Positions 6,656 to 62,447 of a stretch of DNA of 64,000 nt are shown in pieces. Source of the DNA: Escherichia phage EC6; sequence record JX560968; one strand, 5' to 3'. Positions within the stretch are counted from its first letter, which is position 1; every line of letters begins with the position of its first letter. The notes under the pieces are model-generated. The model had not been told where the DNA came from. It worked only from the letters and a program-made list of their open reading frames with translations, and searched no databases. The position numbers and the translations under genes are program-made.

Positions 6656-12054
<5,399 letters not shown>

Positions 12055-21552: not shown

Positions 21553-21882
21553 TTAATCTGCCAACCTTAAGTTAAAATTAACACCAAATTTTTCGCATAC
21601 TTCCAACATAAACTCAAGAGAGACATTACCAGTGAGATTGATTATGTTGGATACACGAGCCTGAGAGATACCACAAATTTTAGCAACTTGCTCTTGAGAA
21701 AGACCTCTGGATTTAATCTCTCTCTTAAAACGATGTGCAACGAAATCTCTCATTTCGTCTACATCCATTGGACAAATATAACTCTCCATTTCAGCTTCTC
21801 TGTCAGCCTCCCAATCATCTTGTGGAGCATAAGGGTCAAAAACCTCATTCATCTTTCTTCTTCCGTTTGCGTGAAGTGTCAA
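21553..21882 (-). CDS. helix-turn-helix DNA-binding protein (putative regulator)
   Basis: LSQEQVAKICGISQARVSNII resembles XRE-type HTH. Confidence 0.4.
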   Translation of the reverse strand: MTLHANGRRKMNEVFDPYAPQDDWEADREAEMESYICPMDVDEMRDFVAHRFKREIKSRGLSQEQVAKICGISQARVSNIINLTGNVSLEFMLEVCEKFGVNFNLRLAD

Positions 21883-28948: not shown

Positions 28949-28978
28949 TTTTACTCCCTCTAAAATCATTAACCTCAT

Positions 28979-29205
28979 ACATTACTGCAAAAAATTATAA
29001 AAAGCAAGTTGACAATGCACTTGACAAGGTGTTAATCTTTGCGAAGTGGGTTTTTACTTAAAAGGTTACTTAACAGTTTAACTATACAGATACTTTAAAA
29101 CTCTTAAAAGATTATTTAATAGCTTTTAAAAAGCTTTAAAGTATAACGTATAGAATACGTTAAGATAAAAGATTAAAACTTAATAGTTACTTAAAAGAGG
29201 CTTAC
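28979..29205. promoter_or_regulatory. AT-rich divergent control region between minus-strand DNA polymerase and plus-strand gene block
   Basis: Tandem TTGACA elements at 29028-29033 and 29040-29045; palindromes AGCTTTTAAAAAGCT (29121-29135) and TAACGTA-N5-TACGTTA (29144-29162). Confidence 0.35.
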
Positions 29206-29628
29206 ATGCAGAAAATGTTTGCTCACCCAGACATAGCTGACTTTGTTAGAGCTTTGCAGAAGTTGGAAGAACTTGACATTGCTGCTCAACGGGAATATGC
29301 TCACCATCACAGGAGAATGGTTGATATACAACATGAAATAGAGTTGTCTGAAAACTATGAAGATGACTTAAAATGCTCTGTATTTGAGCATATGAAAGAT
29401 GTTGCTACAGCGAGACGCAAAGCTAAAGACACAGTTGCTTTACTAGATTCTCTTAAAAAGAGGTTGCAAAGTGGTACAGACCTGTGTAATCTAGCGTCAC
29501 TGATTAACGATGTTGAAACTTCTTGGGATAGGCACTATTATCCACGTTCTGAAAAGACACTTGACTTTTCTTCATCCGAAAACTTAAAATGTTCTAGAAA
29601 GAAACTTAACCAACTGAGAGAGAAATAA
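29206..29628 (+). CDS. hypothetical protein
   Basis: 140-aa ORF, first gene of plus-strand block. Confidence 0.35.
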   Translation: MQKMFAHPDIADFVRALQKLEELDIAAQREYAHHHRRMVDIQHEIELSENYEDDLKCSVFEHMKDVATARRKAKDTVALLDSLKKRLQSGTDLCNLASLINDVETSWDRHYYPRSEKTLDFSSSENLKCSRKKLNQLREK

Positions 29629-54896: not shown

Positions 54897-54918
54897 GGCT
54901 GCTTCGGCGGCCTTTTTT
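54897..54918 (+). terminator. rho-independent terminator with UUCG tetraloop
   Basis: GGCTGC-TTCG-GCGGCC then TTTTTTATTT. Confidence 0.55.
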
Positions 54919-54979
54919 ATTTGTATTTTGTGCAGAGTGCTGTATAATTGTTGTCACGATAAACTAAACAGGAGAACCA

Positions 54980-55528
54980 ATGAAGAAGTTGATTCTAGGT
55001 TTGTGCTTAATGTTTACAGCACACTTATCTTATGCAGTTGACTGCCCAGAGCTATCAATTAGTCAAAAAGTAAACATGTTAAAAGCTTACCAGTATGGTG
55101 AGAATAATATGGGTAAAGGTTGGGGTATCACTCTAGCTGCTATAGCCTTACAAGAGTCAGAGTTAGGTCTGAAGGTAGAGAATAAAAAGACCCATGACTA
55201 TGGTATCTTCCAGAATCACTTGAAGACTGTTGTAAAGCGTAACAAAATCAGTCCTAATGTGGCTAAAAAGAAACTCTTAAAAGATTTTGACTATGCTGCA
55301 AAGGAAACACACAAAGAGCTTGAGTTTTGGACGAAGGTACATGGTCAACCAAAGTCAAAGAAGACTTTACAAAAAGTTTTAGCATCATATAATGCTGGGT
55401 ATTCGTACAAAATTCCTAAAGCTAAGAAATACTCTCAGGATGTCTATAACAATATGAAAGTTATCGCTCAATGTGAATTTGCAACAAACATTTCTAAGGT
55501 AAATCATGAAAAAATTAAGAAAGTCTGA
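54980..55528 (+). CDS. secreted lytic transglycosylase-like protein (SLT domain; candidate endolysin)
   Basis: Signal peptide MKKLILGLCLMFTAHLSYA; SLT-like AIALQESELG...DYGIFQ. Confidence 0.45.
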   Translation: MKKLILGLCLMFTAHLSYAVDCPELSISQKVNMLKAYQYGENNMGKGWGITLAAIALQESELGLKVENKKTHDYGIFQNHLKTVVKRNKISPNVAKKKLLKDFDYAAKETHKELEFWTKVHGQPKSKKTLQKVLASYNAGYSYKIPKAKKYSQDVYNNMKVIAQCEFATNISKVNHEKIKKV

Positions 55529-56201
55529 TGAAGTACTGTGTCATGCTTATGACTTGCATCCTCATGAGTTAGGTCTTGATTCCTGTGTATGGACTCCAGA
55601 ACAGTGCAGAGATTTTGAAGATACTGCAAGAGAAGTTGTATGTTCACTTGAAGAGTTCCACACGCCAGAAACAATTGTGAACGTTGTGGACAAAGAGACT
55701 GGACAATCTATAGGTGTAAGACGTGACAGTTTAGTTATAGTCAATAAAGACCTTGTAGAAAAAGGTAACCTCATCTTAGCAGATATTGATGGTGTTCTTA
55801 CAAATTTTAATCACGAAGACTGCTCAACGGAACTGATTGATGGGTCATTTTCACAGTACACTAATTTGCTTGACTCTGTAAGTGCAAAACCAACGTATGT
55901 TTTCAATATTATTGATGCAATTGCTAACCATGCTGCCATTGGACTCTTGACAGCGAGGGGTGAATCTCAGAGAATACCTACTGAGATGTTTTTAAGGCAT
56001 TACATAGAGCATGATTACATGCTTTTCATGCGTGGTTTTGGAACTAACTCTATAAGTGCAGAAAGTTTAAAAGTTAGGATGATTCAGTCTTGCATTCTTC
56101 CTTACTTTAATATAGTATGCTTTATAGAAGATACAGAGAAGAATGTTCAGAAGGTAAACAGAATCCTTCCACACATTAAAACCATGTTAGTTAAACATTG
56201 A
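55506..56201 (+). CDS. HAD-superfamily hydrolase-like protein (putative)
   Basis: LILADIDGVLTNF resembles HAD motif I DxDG. Confidence 0.3.
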   Translation: MKKLRKSDEVLCHAYDLHPHELGLDSCVWTPEQCRDFEDTAREVVCSLEEFHTPETIVNVVDKETGQSIGVRRDSLVIVNKDLVEKGNLILADIDGVLTNFNHEDCSTELIDGSFSQYTNLLDSVSAKPTYVFNIIDAIANHAAIGLLTARGESQRIPTEMFLRHYIEHDYMLFMRGFGTNSISAESLKVRMIQSCILPYFNIVCFIEDTEKNVQKVNRILPHIKTMLVKH

Positions 56202-56212
56202 GAGAAAAACTT

Positions 56213-56677
56213 ATGAACAATATCATTACGGTAGCACTGGACGATACGACAAACAAATCTGTAGTAGTTCGTAAATTGATTCAAGGTAACTTTGAAGGTA
56301 AAATTTTTCGTGCTGTCAATGTAAAAGCTGATGGCAGCATTCGTGAATATCGTGCATTGTTGAATGTTAAAAAGCACGTAAAAGGTGCTGGTTCAACGAC
56401 TGCACACAAAGAAAACCTGATGACTATTTATGATATGGGTAAGGCTTCAGAGTTAGGTGCTGAAGGTATCGTTAAAGAAGGTGCTCCGTATCGCTCTTTC
56501 AATCTGGAAACTACTCTTATGCTTTCCTTTACAAGTGGTTCTAAAACAATCACTTACCTCTTTACTGATGCTGCAACGGTATCTGCTATTAAGGATGGCA
56601 CTGTCAAAGCTGGCGTAGTTGCTGCTGCAAAAGCTTCTTCGATGGCTGCGAATATCCTTGCTAAAGTCCTCAGTTAA
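56213..56677 (+). CDS. hypothetical protein
   Basis: ATG 56213; 154 aa. Confidence 0.3.
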   Translation: MNNIITVALDDTTNKSVVVRKLIQGNFEGKIFRAVNVKADGSIREYRALLNVKKHVKGAGSTTAHKENLMTIYDMGKASELGAEGIVKEGAPYRSFNLETTLMLSFTSGSKTITYLFTDAATVSAIKDGTVKAGVVAAAKASSMAANILAKVLS

Positions 56678-56688
56678 GGTTAAGATAC

Positions 56689-56710
56689 AGGCTCCTTCGG
56701 GAGCCTTTTT
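56689..56710 (+). terminator. rho-independent terminator with UUCG tetraloop
   Basis: AGGCTCC-TTCG-GGAGCCT then TTTTTC. Confidence 0.6.
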
Positions 56711-56729
56711 CATTTCAGGAGATTGTTAA

Positions 56730-57077
56730 ATGACATTTAAAGAGTTCTGCCAAGATACTTTCATAATTGTTTTCTTAGTTGGAGCAGGTGTCTGGGGAGG
56801 ATACTCTTACAGAGACTACCAAGTTGCTGAAGCTGAGCTAAATAATGAGAAACTAATAAGTGTTGCTAAAGATGCTTATCAGGAAGGTTTAGCCACACTC
56901 AGCACCAATTACAAAAATGATTTGAAAGACGTGCTTGCTAAGAATAAGCACACAAAAGAGGTACTAACATATGAAAAGACTAAGCCAGAGTTTTATAATG
57001 TTTGTGTTACTGATAATTATGTCAGGGTGTTCAACGAACAAAGTGAACAGTACATTCAAAAACTCCCAAGTAAGTGA
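56730..57077 (+). CDS. i-spanin-like protein (Rz-like)
   Basis: N-terminal TM FIIVFLVGAGVWGGY then coiled-coil periplasmic domain; overlapped by a lipoprotein ORF in another frame. Confidence 0.4.
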   Translation: MTFKEFCQDTFIIVFLVGAGVWGGYSYRDYQVAEAELNNEKLISVAKDAYQEGLATLSTNYKNDLKDVLAKNKHTKEVLTYEKTKPEFYNVCVTDNYVRVFNEQSEQYIQKLPSK

Positions 57078-57240
57078 GAGTGACAAGTACACTCAAGAAG
57101 AGTCAAGATTCACTGTCAAAGGTAATACTGGTAGTGATGTGGCAGCAGCCCTTGAGTTTTATCGTGATGGTTTTTACCAGTGCACAATCAAAGCTAATAA
57201 CCTTATTGACATGATTTTATTAGGGAACAAACAGCAATGA
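56971..57240 (+). CDS. o-spanin-like lipoprotein (Rz1-like), overlapping 3' end of i-spanin gene
   Basis: Signal peptide with lipobox-like IMSGC (MKRLSQSFIMFVLLIIMSGCS); AGAGG RBS; starts inside 56730..57077. Confidence 0.4.
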   Translation: MKRLSQSFIMFVLLIIMSGCSTNKVNSTFKNSQVSESDKYTQEESRFTVKGNTGSDVAAALEFYRDGFYQCTIKANNLIDMILLGNKQQ

Positions 57241-57506
57241 CAGAGAATGAAGACACTTTCTATGTAGAAGGGTACTTACTGCTACCACGACCAAAAGAAA
57301 CTTATATGCGGGTTGATTTCTCACCAACCATTATGGATAATGTGATGTGTCATATCTTTATGCAAGGTGTCACAGCACAGCTTAATCATGTTGGTAAAGA
57401 GTGCAAAATAAAGGTTGACACTCATCCAGAAATCAAAGAGAATCACTACACATGGTTCTTACCAGACTCTAAAGAAATCTTAGCAATTCTTAAAACGAGG
57501 AAATGA
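57237..57506 (+). CDS. hypothetical protein
   Basis: 89-aa ORF. Confidence 0.3.
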   Translation: MTENEDTFYVEGYLLLPRPKETYMRVDFSPTIMDNVMCHIFMQGVTAQLNHVGKECKIKVDTHPEIKENHYTWFLPDSKEILAILKTRK

Positions 57507-57817
57507 TTATGCAATTCCAGCCAACAAATCGTGGATTTTCTTATGCAGAATTTAAAGATGCTAAAGGAGAGATTTGTACTTTACAAGAAAGTTCATCATA
57601 TGAACCATGTATCTGGTTAGGTGCTAAAGAGGTCTCTGTTCAGTACCTAGATGGTGGCTGGAAAACACTTGATATCCCAGCATTAGTAGGCAAAGATTTT
57701 GTAGGTAACCAAAGAATGAAACTCAACCAAGAACAGGTGAAAGAGTTGTTACCGTACCTTCAATACTTTGCTGAAAATGGTGAATTACCAACAGAGGAAC
57801 TTACAAATGCAGATTAA
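57503..57817 (+). CDS. hypothetical protein
   Basis: 104-aa ORF. Confidence 0.3.
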   Translation: MIMQFQPTNRGFSYAEFKDAKGEICTLQESSSYEPCIWLGAKEVSVQYLDGGWKTLDIPALVGKDFVGNQRMKLNQEQVKELLPYLQYFAENGELPTEELTNAD

Positions 57818-58130
57818 TGGAAGAGACTTTGTAGCCGTTTACTACGAGAAAGATAAAGAAGTTGGCGTAGCACAAGTATCTTATGGTAATGGTAAGTGGT
57901 TGTATGGGACAATCGCAGTAGTCGGGGCAAGAAGTGATACAAAAACTTTTAAAGATTGTGTTGACCTTCTTGAAGAATCCATCCACAATCATTGGTGTCT
58001 GATATGGATGACTGACAACGAAGTGGTAGAACGCTTCAAAAAGATTGGTATCAACATTGATAGCATTGAGCATGTTGATTTATATGAACTAACCGAAAAG
58101 GTAAGCTATGAAAGCTCTAGAGGTAATTGA
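57807..58130 (+). CDS. hypothetical protein
   Basis: ATG 57807 overlapping upstream stop. Confidence 0.3.
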   Translation: MQINGRDFVAVYYEKDKEVGVAQVSYGNGKWLYGTIAVVGARSDTKTFKDCVDLLEESIHNHWCLIWMTDNEVVERFKKIGINIDSIEHVDLYELTEKVSYESSRGN

Positions 58131-58335
58131 TAAAGACACTGGAGAAGTCACATCAGCATGTGTTTTCGTTAGTAACGACACAGTGATACCATTTTACAAT
58201 CTCGATAGTTTTAGCTTTACAGGGATAACTCCAGAAGAATACTTTGAAGACCTTACCTTTGCCAGAATTTCTATAGATACATTCTATAAATGCTTCTATG
58301 ATGAAGGTAAAGAATTACGAGAAACTGAACTATAA
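58108..58335 (+). CDS. hypothetical protein
   Basis: 75-aa ORF. Confidence 0.3.
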   Translation: MKALEVIDKDTGEVTSACVFVSNDTVIPFYNLDSFSFTGITPEEYFEDLTFARISIDTFYKCFYDEGKELRETEL

Positions 58336-58347
58336 GGTGTATATTAT

Positions 58348-58548
58348 ATGGCTGACTTCTGCAAAGACTGTTCTATCGAAATGTTCGGACGTGATACAGG
58401 TGACTTAAAAGGTCTTATCACTGAAGATGACTTTAAAGCTGGCTATGCAATGCCAGTAATCTGTGAAGGTTGTGGATGTATCTGGGTAGACCACGAAGGA
58501 CAACGTGTAAAACCTTCAGAAGACAAAGAATCTTGGGAGAGATGTTAA
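58348..58548 (+). CDS. small zinc-ribbon protein
   Basis: CKDC...CEGCGC cysteine pairs. Confidence 0.3.
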   Translation: MADFCKDCSIEMFGRDTGDLKGLITEDDFKAGYAMPVICEGCGCIWVDHEGQRVKPSEDKESWERC

Positions 58549-59334
58549 ATGGGTATTGTAAAAATAATCAATGGTGATATCTTTTCCGCCTTTGATAAAG
58601 GTAAGTTTGACATCATTGGTCACGGCTGCAACTGTATGAACTTAATGGGTGCAGGTATCGCTGACAAGATTTCTAAACTTTACCCAAAAGCATATGAGAC
58701 CGATACAGAAGTTTATTTGTATGCAGGTGGCATAGGCCACAAACCCTGTGAAAATTTACTAGGTAATTTCTCTGTAGCACGTTTAGAACAAGGCCGTATA
58801 GCTAACCTTTACACTCAGCTTAAGACTGGTAAAGATGCCCGATATAGTGCTTTAGAGTCATCTTTGAAACAGCTTAACAGATACTGTGAAGTCAATCAGT
58901 TGAAGAAAGTTGGGTTACCTATGATTGGTGCAGGTATCGGTGGGCTAGACCCTCAAGCAGTCACCGTTATCATTAATCAGGTGATGAAGAGTGTAGATGT
59001 GTATCTGTATGTCTACGAAGGAGAGATGTACCACAAGTTACGCTCAGGTTGGAAGAACTACTGTGAACCAGAATACTTTGCAGGTGTAGTAGTATTCACG
59101 GATGATGCAGTTACCCTCTTCAGACGAAGAAAAGGTAAGATACATCAAAGTAACCCTCCGGTTGAAAAGATGTCTCTAAGTAACGCTCTAGTTACCCACC
59201 TGTCGAAGAGCAATCACAGGATTGCAGTAACATTTGGCAGTGATGCAGATACATATATCTATGCAAGAACTGATGAGGATGTTGAGGAAATTTTCTCTTC
59301 ACAGGAAGTTACCTTCTTAGACGCAAAGAACTAA
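58549..59334 (+). CDS. macro-domain-like protein (ADP-ribose binding/processing, putative)
   Basis: N-terminus INGDIF...FDIIGHGCNCMNLMGAGIADKI aligns by eye with macro motif GDIT...DAIVNAANxxLLGGGGVDGAI. Confidence 0.45.
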   Translation: MGIVKIINGDIFSAFDKGKFDIIGHGCNCMNLMGAGIADKISKLYPKAYETDTEVYLYAGGIGHKPCENLLGNFSVARLEQGRIANLYTQLKTGKDARYSALESSLKQLNRYCEVNQLKKVGLPMIGAGIGGLDPQAVTVIINQVMKSVDVYLYVYEGEMYHKLRSGWKNYCEPEYFAGVVVFTDDAVTLFRRRKGKIHQSNPPVEKMSLSNALVTHLSKSNHRIAVTFGSDADTYIYARTDEDVEEIFSSQEVTFLDAKN

Positions 59335-59365
59335 GATACTCTGTAGAATATTCACAATAGACTAA

Positions 59366-59411
59366 GCCTTTCTTATCTGGGAAATCTTTCAGGTAAGGAG
59401 GGCTTTTTCAT
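59366..59411 (+). terminator. imperfect long hairpin with U-tract (terminator-like)
   Basis: AGCCTTTCTTATCTGG...CAGGTAAGGAGGGCT then TTTTTCATTTC. Confidence 0.35.
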
Positions 59412-59592
59412 TTCAGGATTGTGCAGGTAGAGTTCTGTAGAGAAATCTGTAGAGAAAATTTTGAACTCCAAAGAGAAAATTCATTTTCAAACTGTGCAGG
59501 TAATCTCCAAAGAGCTTTTTCATTTTCAAAACGTGCAGATAAAAATCAGGTCGGGCAAGAAAAATCATTTTAGAATTGTGCAGGTAGGTGGG
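59404..59592 (+). repeat. array of four ~26-nt direct repeats (consensus TCATTTTCAAAAnTGTGCAGGTA)
   Basis: Copies at 59404-59430, 59477-59503, 59516-59543, 59560-59590 with 40-70 nt spacing; extra AGAGAAA sub-repeats. Confidence 0.6.
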
Positions 59593-59763
59593 TGTAGGTG
59601 GGGATGTCGCCATTTCTCACAAGGCTACCACATCTGGAAATAAAAGTCAACAGAAAAATTTGTAGCGGATTGAAAAATAATTCTTGATTGTAGTTCTGTT
59701 TTGTGGTAGTCGCGTGCGCCCGTTTCATTACAGTTTTTTGCAAAAATATTTTTAAAATTTTTC

Positions 59764-59859
59764 TTGACTCCTCGAACGGGTTTTTATAGTATTTGCATCA
59801 GACGGGGAGGGAGTGACCTTCCCCACTAAATAACTAACCTTAAACTAGGAGATTCAAAA
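59764..59859 (+). promoter_or_regulatory. promoter + 5' stem-loop + SD cassette (type I variant)
   Basis: TTGACT-N17-TAGTAT, then GGGGAGGGAGTGACCTTCCCC hairpin, then AACTAGGAGATTCAAAAATG. Confidence 0.55.
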
Positions 59860-60240
59860 ATGGCTTATCGTGCACCTAAATTCATCAATAAAGACAACTT
59901 CCGCAACGCACTGGAAAAATCACTTGATGAGAACTTTACAGGTCAGATTATTATTGTTCACGCATATAATTTTAAGTATGATATTAACGGGAATAAAATC
60001 AATCATTACACGGCAACAATGGTAGATGGTACACTATCAAGTGAAAAAGCCGTACTGAATGCACTTGCAGGACGTGGCAAAAACCTGATAAAATGCAATA
60101 AGAGACGTTATCAAGGCGGCGCATATGGTTATGATGATGCTGTTTACCATCTTGAAAATATGGGCTATCAGGTGGAAAAAGCCGGAATATCTCAAATAAT
60201 TGGCAGTGATGGATATGTGACAATTTTCAAAATTAAATAA
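59860..60240 (+). CDS. early hypothetical protein
   Basis: 126 aa; own promoter/stem-loop cassette and AGGAGA RBS. Confidence 0.45.
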   Translation: MAYRAPKFINKDNFRNALEKSLDENFTGQIIIVHAYNFKYDINGNKINHYTATMVDGTLSSEKAVLNALAGRGKNLIKCNKRRYQGGAYGYDDAVYHLENMGYQVEKAGISQIIGSDGYVTIFKIK

Positions 60241-60247
60241 AAAGTAC

Positions 60248-60329
60248 TTTACAAGGGGCTTATAGTTCGATAAAGTAAGCCCCAGATAAAGAGCTTTACC
60301 ACTAAATCCTTAAACTAGGAGATTCAAAA
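60248..60329 (+). promoter_or_regulatory. promoter-hairpin-SD cassette (type II)
   Basis: TTTACA-N17-TAAAGT with GGGGCTTA...TAAGCCCC hairpin spanning spacer and -10; then CCTTAAACTAGGAGATTCAAAAATG. Confidence 0.5.
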
Positions 60330-61559: not shown

Positions 61560-61641
61560 TTTACAAGGGGCTTATAGTTCGATAAAGTAAGCCCCAGATA
61601 AAGAGCTTTACCGCATTAACCTTAAACTAGGAGATTCAAAA
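61560..61641 (+). promoter_or_regulatory. promoter-hairpin-SD cassette (type II)
   Basis: Near-identical copy of 60248..60329. Confidence 0.5.
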
Positions 61642-62365: not shown

Positions 62366-62447
62366 TTTACAAGGGGCTTATAGTTCGATAAAGTAAGCCC
62401 CAGATAAAGAGCTTTACCACTAAATCCTTAAACTAGGAGATTCAAAA
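62366..62447 (+). promoter_or_regulatory. promoter-hairpin-SD cassette (type II)
   Basis: Third near-identical copy (TTTACAAGGGGCTTATAGTTCGATAAAGTAAGCCCC...). Confidence 0.5.

Follow-up and report, generated by a model that had tools for sequence, protein, structure and literature searches.

Genomic setting of the array

Within the window, the whole 64,000-nucleotide stretch of Escherichia phage EC6 (JX560968) that was analysed, a non-coding gap of 525 nt (59335-59859) separates the gene of a macro-domain protein (58549-59334) from the next gene (59860-60240). The macro gene closes an operon (54980-59334) which also encodes an SLT-like lipoprotein, a kinase-like protein, spanins and small ORFs, and the gene at 59860-60240 is the first of a cluster of small genes with a strong sigma-70 promoter. 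The gap contains an array of direct repeats, which extends from the T-tract of the macro gene's terminator to approximately 180 nt upstream of this promoter. The original prediction was right in describing the stretch as non-coding and gave its length as about 450 nt, which is too short.

The region is matched by 221 phage records, nearly all of them Felix O1-like myoviruses, with identities of up to about 96%, and the window DNA corresponds to a segment of a Felixounavirus genome (subfamily Ounavirinae, about 86-89 kb). The complete relative vB_EcoM_D4 (PP886228), the ends of which are defined, was used as the reference map. Its left end is formed by a minus-strand block (1-8.4 kb), followed by tRNAs and structural genes on the + strand; further to the right lie a minus-strand block with the genes of thymidylate synthase, ligase and DNA polymerase, after which a single long block on the + strand has the order primase/helicase, ribonucleotide reductases, rIIA/B, polynucleotide kinase and the macro-domain 'phosphatase'. 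The array is positioned 3' of the macro gene, on the inner edge of the small-gene cluster, which occupies ~6.5 kb up to the right end; in D4 the distance between the array and that end is 7.3-7.5 kb (8.2-8.4%).

The direct terminal repeat (DTR) of D4 is 581 bp in length, is identical at both ends of the record and has been typed experimentally; DTRs of 581 bp and 608 bp have been reported for the felixounaviruses Pr103Blw and UAB_Phi87 (PMC8303462, PMC4837284). As some 6.8 kb separate the array from the start of the D4 repeat, which lies to its right and outside the window, the array was rejected as a terminal repeat or packaging site. Short YTGTTAR / TTAACA repeats occur at high density in the terminal repeat (at the ends of PP886228) and in the ~1.9 kb of non-coding DNA around it, and a TTAACA-rich stretch is located directly 3' of the array in a divergent 88-kb lineage (L173). 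A link between the array and the YTGTTAR repeats was also rejected, TGTAG-type words not being specifically enriched at the array.

The macro-domain protein possesses a C-terminal extension of ~100 aa that is kept in Felixounavirus, Mooglevirus and the Erwinia phage and is absent from L173 (148 aa) and from T4-type homologues. GGTGCAGGTA, which corresponds to the right half and tail of the repeat, occurs twice within the macro gene (58648-58657 and 58927-58936), where it is read as Gly-Ala-Gly; coding sequence probably produced this match by chance.

Organisation of the array and its flanking elements

The following elements were identified in the gap:

59364-59405, + strand: intrinsic terminator of the macro-gene operon (terminator scan), a 19-pair hairpin with several G-U pairs, its T-tract being the 5' flank of copy 1
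59403-59429, + strand: copy 1, CTTTT-TCATTT-CAGGATT-GTGCA-GGTA (core 59408-59425)
59430-59481, + strand: sub-repeats (G)TTCTGTAGAGAAAT / 'CTGTAGAGAAA', three 19-nt copies at 59430, 59442 and 59463 (repeat search)
59476-59502, + strand: copy 2, AAAAT-TCATTT-TCAAACT-GTGCA-GGTA (core 59481-59498), with ACTCCAAAGAG before it
59515-59541, + strand: copy 3, CTTTT-TCATTT-TCAAAAC-GTGCA-GATA (core 59520-59537), with TCTCCAAAGAG before it
59560-59586, + strand: copy 4, AAAAA-TCATTT-TAGAATT-GTGCA-GGTA (core 59565-59582), with GGTCGGGCAAG before it
59587-59640, no strand assigned: variable patch of 54 nt, G-rich on the + strand here (conservation 0.67)
59641-59735, no strand assigned: conserved non-coding block of 95 nt (conservation 0.88)
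59736-59792, + strand: A/T-rich UP-like tract and sigma-70 promoter TTGACT-N17-TAGTAT of the first small gene, 59860-60240 (promoter scan)

Each unit consists of five A or five T followed by TCATTT-N7-GTGCA-(GGTA). The motif can be written as W5-TCATTT-N7-GTGCA(G)(G)TA, with an 18-base two-part core, and its four copies lie on the same strand (59408-59586). The sequence TCATTTYNNRANYGTGCAGRTA was matched four times on the + strand with no mismatches (59408-59429, 59481-59502, 59520-59541 and 59565-59586), compared with a mean of 0.02 matches expected by chance, and four copies were reached in none of 100 shuffles of the window. A repeat search recovered the same four copies as a 31-nt family with a start-to-start spacing of 73/39/45, copies 2-4 being only 61-74% identical to copy 1. 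Both the four direct repeats and the AGAGAAA sub-repeats of the original prediction are therefore real, the latter forming the 19-nt family that occupies the 73-nt interval separating copies 1 and 2.

The ORFs lying over the array had been regarded as artefacts of the repeats. Among related phages their frame, start codon and ends vary, and none is present on the + strand in the Erwinia phage; being inconsistent between phages, they are artefacts, and a coding role was rejected. A structured RNA was rejected as well, for the fold of the whole gap (z -4.4) weakened to z -1.6 for 59409-59640 alone, with the terminator and the downstream part (59641-59860) left out, and single units fold less well than their own shuffles (z-scores mostly positive, from a tool which does not predict pseudoknots). 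No Rfam model was matched at threshold (e.g. CRISPR-DR43, 17 bits vs 35), and a known RNA family or CRISPR-like mini-array was discarded.

With its several G-U pairs, the terminator hairpin is specific to the RNA of the + strand. It is annotated as a rho-independent terminator in the ASO1B and AYO145A records, and the promoter of 59860-60240 is annotated in ASO1B; the repeats are unannotated in both records.

The patch that follows copy 4 exists as two unrelated alleles, one G-rich (window, Bas63 and DE7) and the other C-rich with CCCCTCTCCCCCTCTTACTCCCC (Felix O1, Suspvirus and Mooglevirus); both have a propensity to form G-quadruplexes, which would lie on opposite strands. The break in GenBank record ON210138 (EC106) falls within this patch, and the start of the EC106 record just after copy 4 was rejected as a genome end and attributed to an assembly break in the C-rich patch. 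The conserved block includes AGTCAA (59645-59650) and TTGATT-N17-TAGTCG (59684-59712), and a weak fifth member of the array is found at 59716-59746 as the degenerate copy TCATTACAGTTTTTTGCA (59722-59739). A possible leftward promoter on the minus strand (59622-59668; reverse complement CAAATTTTTCTG-TTGACT-N17-TAGCCT) would drive antisense transcription across the array. Its TTGACT, next to a UP-like tract, is the reverse complement of the AGTCAA in the conserved block. In the UP/-35 part it differs very little from the rightward early promoter (AAAATTTTTC-TTGACT, 59753-59769); the -35 is kept in all lineages, and the -10 lies inside the variable patch (TAAGAG in the Felix O1 allele).

Within the small-gene cluster, three cassettes (60248-60276, 61560-61588 and 62366-62394) possess a promoter-like TTTACA-N17-TAAAGT within a GGGGCTTA...TAAGCCCC hairpin and resemble the promoter-stem-loop cassettes carried by T4-type phages. 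They are the 57-bp repeats of the Felix O1 genome paper.

Conservation and distribution

The array is common to the Ounavirinae, being found at the same place and in the same orientation in Felixounavirus, Suspvirus, Mooglevirus, Erwinia Kolesnikvirus and L173. The macro protein beside it is only 37-65% identical in the last four of these, and its terminator hairpin is kept in most lineages. Array spacing is 75/41/45 in Mooglevirus and 37/37/39 in the four-unit array of Erwinia Kolesnikvirus (macro protein only 43% identical); L173 has a 2+2 arrangement (macro protein about 37-50% identical), and spacings of 75/45 and 36/148/38 were also seen among relatives.

When 15 distinct sequences were aligned, conservation was 0.998 over the 44 positions of the half-sites, compared with 0.911 at codon position 2 and 0.781 at codon position 3 of the macro gene. 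The N7 positions, which are free between copies, reached 0.836 and the spacers 0.873 in the same alignment. Orthologous copies resemble one another more closely than do the members of a single array, which indicates that the array is old and that each position is under selection. Copies differ in having either A5 or T5 as their 5' flank, an interchange that is equivalent on duplex DNA and very different in RNA. Judged by sequence comparison, the array is the strongest-conserved non-coding element found around the early-region boundary, and a real, deeply conserved and previously unannotated cis-element of the Ounavirinae.

Pattern scans of IMG/VR and metagenomes gave array matches solely on Ounavirinae-sized contigs; matches of a relaxed pattern to other viral and metagenome contigs were rejected as tandem repeats within coding sequence, with whole-codon periods (multiples of 3). 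Two adjacent copies of the motif were not detected in bacterial genomes of 185,579 species, and blastn of the array against plasmids returned noise only. The array was found in no bacterial genome and in no phage group outside the Ounavirinae. A host binding-site family was rejected, single exact copies being present in random taxa at chance level with no enrichment in Enterobacterales, which is weak evidence as the pattern fixed part of N7. No description of the array was found in the literature, nor was an origin or transcription-start map for the Ounavirinae.

A related site at the promoter of the upstream operon

When as many as 3 mismatches were allowed, neither the rest of the window nor the remainder of the complete D4 genome gave another match to the motif. 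The search for further copies that had been proposed did, with looser half-sites, yield one extra site, located behind rIIB:

54897-54916, + strand: intrinsic terminator after rIIB, GGCTGCTTCGGCGGCC and then a T-tract (read from sequence)
54917-54948, + strand: solitary site TTATTT-GTATTTT-GTGCA (54917-54934), 8 nt, and a perfect -10 TATAAT (54943-54948) (half-site search)

Since TATAAT follows 8 nt past the site, the -35/spacer of the promoter that serves operon 54980-59334 coincides in part with the motif. Felixounavirus, Mooglevirus and two other lineages (L182 and L183) have retained the site, and in all four TTATTT is fixed, N7 free, TGTGCAG fixed, the next 8 bases free and TATAAT fixed, the same signature as that of the array. 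Most lineages thus possess one operon with the motif at its promoter and four copies behind its terminator. A site of this type was not found in Erwinia-type phages, so the promoter link is not universal.

The suggestion that the repeats are phage-specific promoters was not supported: the full motif is limited to one locus in the window and D4, which is not the distribution of a dispersed promoter motif, and none of the four copies is followed at 8 nt by a -10-like hexamer, as is the site at 54917 (read from sequence).

Copy 1 and the solitary site share the order terminator hairpin, T-tract, T(C/T)ATTT, N7, GTGCAG, and in Si3-type phages copy 1 is followed by CTGTATAGG, resembling CTGTATAAT. 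On these grounds the array might have no function and be left over from duplications of terminator-promoter junctions of the kind found downstream of rIIB, its -10 elements having decayed. This appears extremely improbable, as a relic would itself have decayed, whereas the half-sites are 99.8% conserved across genera while spacers and neighbouring genes diverge, and lineages with proteins <50% identical retain the number and order of the copies.

The array as putative operator-like sites

Because the motif surpasses the neighbouring genes in conservation across the subfamily, the array is probably a docking site for a DNA-binding protein, and the confinement of the motif to the Ounavirinae makes it most likely that the binding protein is phage-encoded. 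The reading preferred here, which is held tentatively and falls a little short of being probable, is that the copies are operator-like sites for a sequence-specific, probably phage-encoded DNA-binding protein at an operon boundary. One such protein would bind the sites on double-stranded DNA, reading the fixed halves TCATTT and GTGCA, the centres of which are ~12 bp apart, in two successive major grooves beside the five-base A-tract or T-tract that flanks each site 5'. This geometry would suit a monomer with two DNA-reading heads, or head-to-tail subunits, and not a symmetric dimer. The bound protein may control the promoter downstream of rIIB (~54.95 kb), and the array may act as a nucleoprotein block or insulator between the operon and the small-gene cluster that would prevent read-through from one side or from both. 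We infer this binding, the identity of the protein and the direction of its regulatory effect from sequence features.

An operator array is expected to consist of conserved specific sites with at least one over a promoter core, and here the half-sites are 0.998 conserved and site 54917-54934 lies over a -35/spacer. Some observations speak against operators: at 180-350 bp, the distance from the array to the early promoter is long by the standard of classical operators; the motif is missing from the remaining promoters of the small-gene cluster; and the spacings of 36-45 and 73-77 bp are not in helical phase.

The comparison class for such sites comprises asymmetric phage-regulator operators and the marboxes of the two-headed monomeric regulators MarA, SoxS and Rob. 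As in marboxes, the site is non-palindromic and in two parts, with short fixed elements approximately one helical turn apart, and one site of the array type lies over a -35; the reverse strand of the motif, GCAC...AAAT, also resembles the marbox consensus GCAC...AAAY. Compared with that consensus, GCAC and AAA are separated by one base fewer, only ~9 of 13 specified positions agree on comparison by hand, and the orientation of the site at the 54917 promoter does not fit class II marbox promoters. Sites for IHF, Fis, CRP, sigma-54, sigma-E, boxA, TorR, OmpR, marbox and Ter were rejected, since none fits all copies (hand check against the consensus sequences).

No Rep or other DNA-binding family was detected among the flanking proteins using Pfam and PHROGs, many of these proteins being of unknown function. 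The only clear HTH protein in the window (21553-21882) is of the HTH_3 type, which usually binds palindromes. Two products of the upstream operon were rejected as binders. The zinc-ribbon-like p66 (58348-58548; CxxC...CxxCxC), encoded directly upstream of the macro gene, is absent from Erwinia-type phages and L173. p159 (56198-56677) gave only a sub-threshold hit to WYL_2 (Sm-like SH3 barrel); it is the best-conserved protein of the operon upstream of the array, being 60% identical in the Erwinia-type phage.

Comparison with iteron-type replication origins

Iterons of a replication origin were another of the three options of the original prediction, and a site of this type, or for replisome loading, would work by an initiator that binds the repeats, bends the DNA and opens an A/T-rich stretch, helped by transcription from the promoter and redundant with other origins. 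Multiple direct repeats of ~17-22 bp in one orientation at one locus are indeed present, as four + strand copies. The likeness to the iterons of lambda ori, P1 oriR, F, pSC101 and R6K (~18-22 bp) extends to three to four asymmetric repeats in the same orientation, a single non-coding locus and flanking A/T tracts. An A/T-rich tract and a strong promoter are found within 200 bp, the tract (59736-59763) doubling as the UP-like element of that promoter. Furthermore, the solitary 54917 site at the promoter of the upstream operon recalls the autoregulated Rep genes of the plasmids pSC101, F and P1, and the Erwinia lineage possesses four DnaA boxes with one mismatch each.

Several features of the array differ from those of iterons. 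Its spacing (36-45 or 73-77 bp) is irregular, lineage-dependent and unphased where helically phased spacing is expected, its copies differ mutually in the central 7 bp, and no Rep-like initiator, nor any initiator-like gene of the flanking operon, was identified. DnaA boxes with at most one mismatch are confined to the Erwinia lineage and L173 (one box), and none was detected in Felixounavirus and Mooglevirus. The GC-skew check proposed for the origin idea gave no support for it: the skew makes no turn at the array, where it keeps its sign, and falls to the right of it; the cumulative minimum (about 29 kb) falls in an A/T-rich region (28950-29207) flanked by the divergent polymerase and primase genes. 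Insertions into the array of phage Bas63 carry no fitness cost (see below), which argues against a sole essential origin. On balance an iteron-type origin is considered unlikely. Among the three options offered at the outset, binding sites for a regulator fit best, as a putative assignment, the promoter family is set aside, and origin iterons are an unlikely alternative.

The region at 28950-29207 is very A/T-rich and lies between the divergent DNA polymerase gene (- strand) and primase operon (+ strand), with CTTAAAAG-type repeats and a 27-nt near-palindrome (29090-29144). These sequence features make it a more conventional origin candidate than the array.

Dispensability, transcription and possible roles during infection

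In a PhageMaP screen of phage Bas63, barcodes were inserted by Cas9-directed targeting and scored per gene (bioRxiv 10.1101/2024.10.10.617714). 'Gene 96' of this phage (bas63_0096, 64142-64297) is a spurious ORF over the array, copies of which lie at 64137, 64210, 64249 and 64294, and it spans from within copy 1 to the start of copy 4. Its insertions scored +0.24 to +0.98 in every host sheet examined, like those of non-essential genes, and the scores in the defence-strain sheets examined were also like those of a non-essential gene (bioRxiv 10.1101/2024.10.10.617714). The intact array is thus dispensable under laboratory conditions, which suits an accessory regulatory element as proposed in the operator-like reading.

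'ORF14' of Felix O1 (8042-8254) is likewise a spurious ORF, lying over copies 2-4. Its RNA, assayed by an RT-PCR that is not strand-resolving, was at its maximum at 25 min, and that of the flanking ORF13 and ORF16 peaked at 5 min (PMC3185647). A role at the RNA level is therefore possible. Placing the array upstream of the early gene cluster was reasonable, as Felix O1 ORFs 16 and 20-22 downstream of it peak at 5 min; the macro gene upstream (ORF13) is also early.

The position of the array recalls the injection stop of phage T5 (bioRxiv 10.1101/866236), a signal at 7.9% of the genome in a repeat-rich non-coding region with DnaA boxes. By analogy, the end carrying the small early genes would enter the cell first, and transfer would pause at the array, acting as a checkpoint or membrane anchor, until early proteins are made. 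The array is similarly a repeat-rich non-coding region at the inner border of an early block, at 8.2-8.4% from the right end in D4, and units of the Erwinia phage contain near-consensus DnaA boxes. However, the paired DnaA boxes within large inverted repeats that characterise the T5 region were not found: the array is without such inverted repeats and palindromes, the similarity to DnaA boxes is missing in most lineages, and the array is not part of the terminal repeat. For Felix O1-like phages, no publication describing DNA transfer in two steps was found, and insertions are tolerated. A DNA-entry stop is thus rated as highly improbable.

Dispensability in laboratory strains combined with very strong purifying selection is typical of counter-defence elements, and the array could be a decoy against host or prophage defence, either as DNA that titrates a defence protein, as aba does for BstA (PMC8585504), or as repeat RNA that mimics a type III antitoxin, as pseudo-ToxI does (PMC3475682, PMC5086642). 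Like pseudo-ToxI, the array consists of short tandem-like repeats in a virulent myovirus. The region is transcribed in Felix O1, the array of the Erwinia phage has a 37-nt period, and ToxI arrays are common on small plasmids of E. coli and Salmonella. Arrays at least 95% identical to that of pECA1039 (Pectobacterium) were present on 64 of 76 matching plasmids, mostly small and mobilizable, from E. coli, Salmonella, Klebsiella and others, which indicates that the natural hosts of these phages often carry ToxIN.

The ToxI sequence used was confirmed against pECA1039, and a local match of 17/20 was found in the window; this similarity is confined to one non-conserved spacer of this allele, and pseudo-ToxI was rejected. 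The ToxI score was reached by 10 of 500 shuffles for the window, vs 187/500 for Felix O1, 433/500 for the Erwinia phage and 47/500 for Mooglevirus phage SFPB. Near-identical tandem repeats of 34-45 nt, as in pseudo-ToxI, are not what the array contains, its units being irregularly spaced and diverged from one another (61-74% identity to copy 1), nor are folded units with their own promoter, the units being unstructured as RNA and the array lying behind a strong terminator. As regards decoys more generally, no bacterial locus with the paired motif was detected, and the defence-strain sheets examined give gene 96 of Bas63 the profile of a non-essential gene. A decoy is accordingly regarded as very unlikely. 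The broader claim, that the array is a subfamily-wide non-coding element of either counter-defence (DNA or unstructured-RNA decoy) or an infection checkpoint (T5-like stop or anchor holding the first 8% of the genome at the cell envelope), seems quite unlikely; if true, the decoy or the stop would explain the extreme conservation of the array together with its dispensability in defence-poor laboratory strains.

Significance for the Ounavirinae

As a direct-repeat protein-docking array, the element is familiar in kind; its motif, partner and role are new. The motif ties a promoter to the end of the same operon, and the 18-bp two-part site can be used directly as bait for the binding protein. 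In addition, the array is a tolerated insertion site, which is useful for phage engineering. Felix O1-like phages are widely used in the typing of Salmonella and E. coli, in biocontrol and in therapy, and the Felix O1 genome paper states that the timing of their transcription and the start of their replication are not known. The identity of the binder would provide a first handle on gene regulation, or on the control of origin or entry, in the Ounavirinae.
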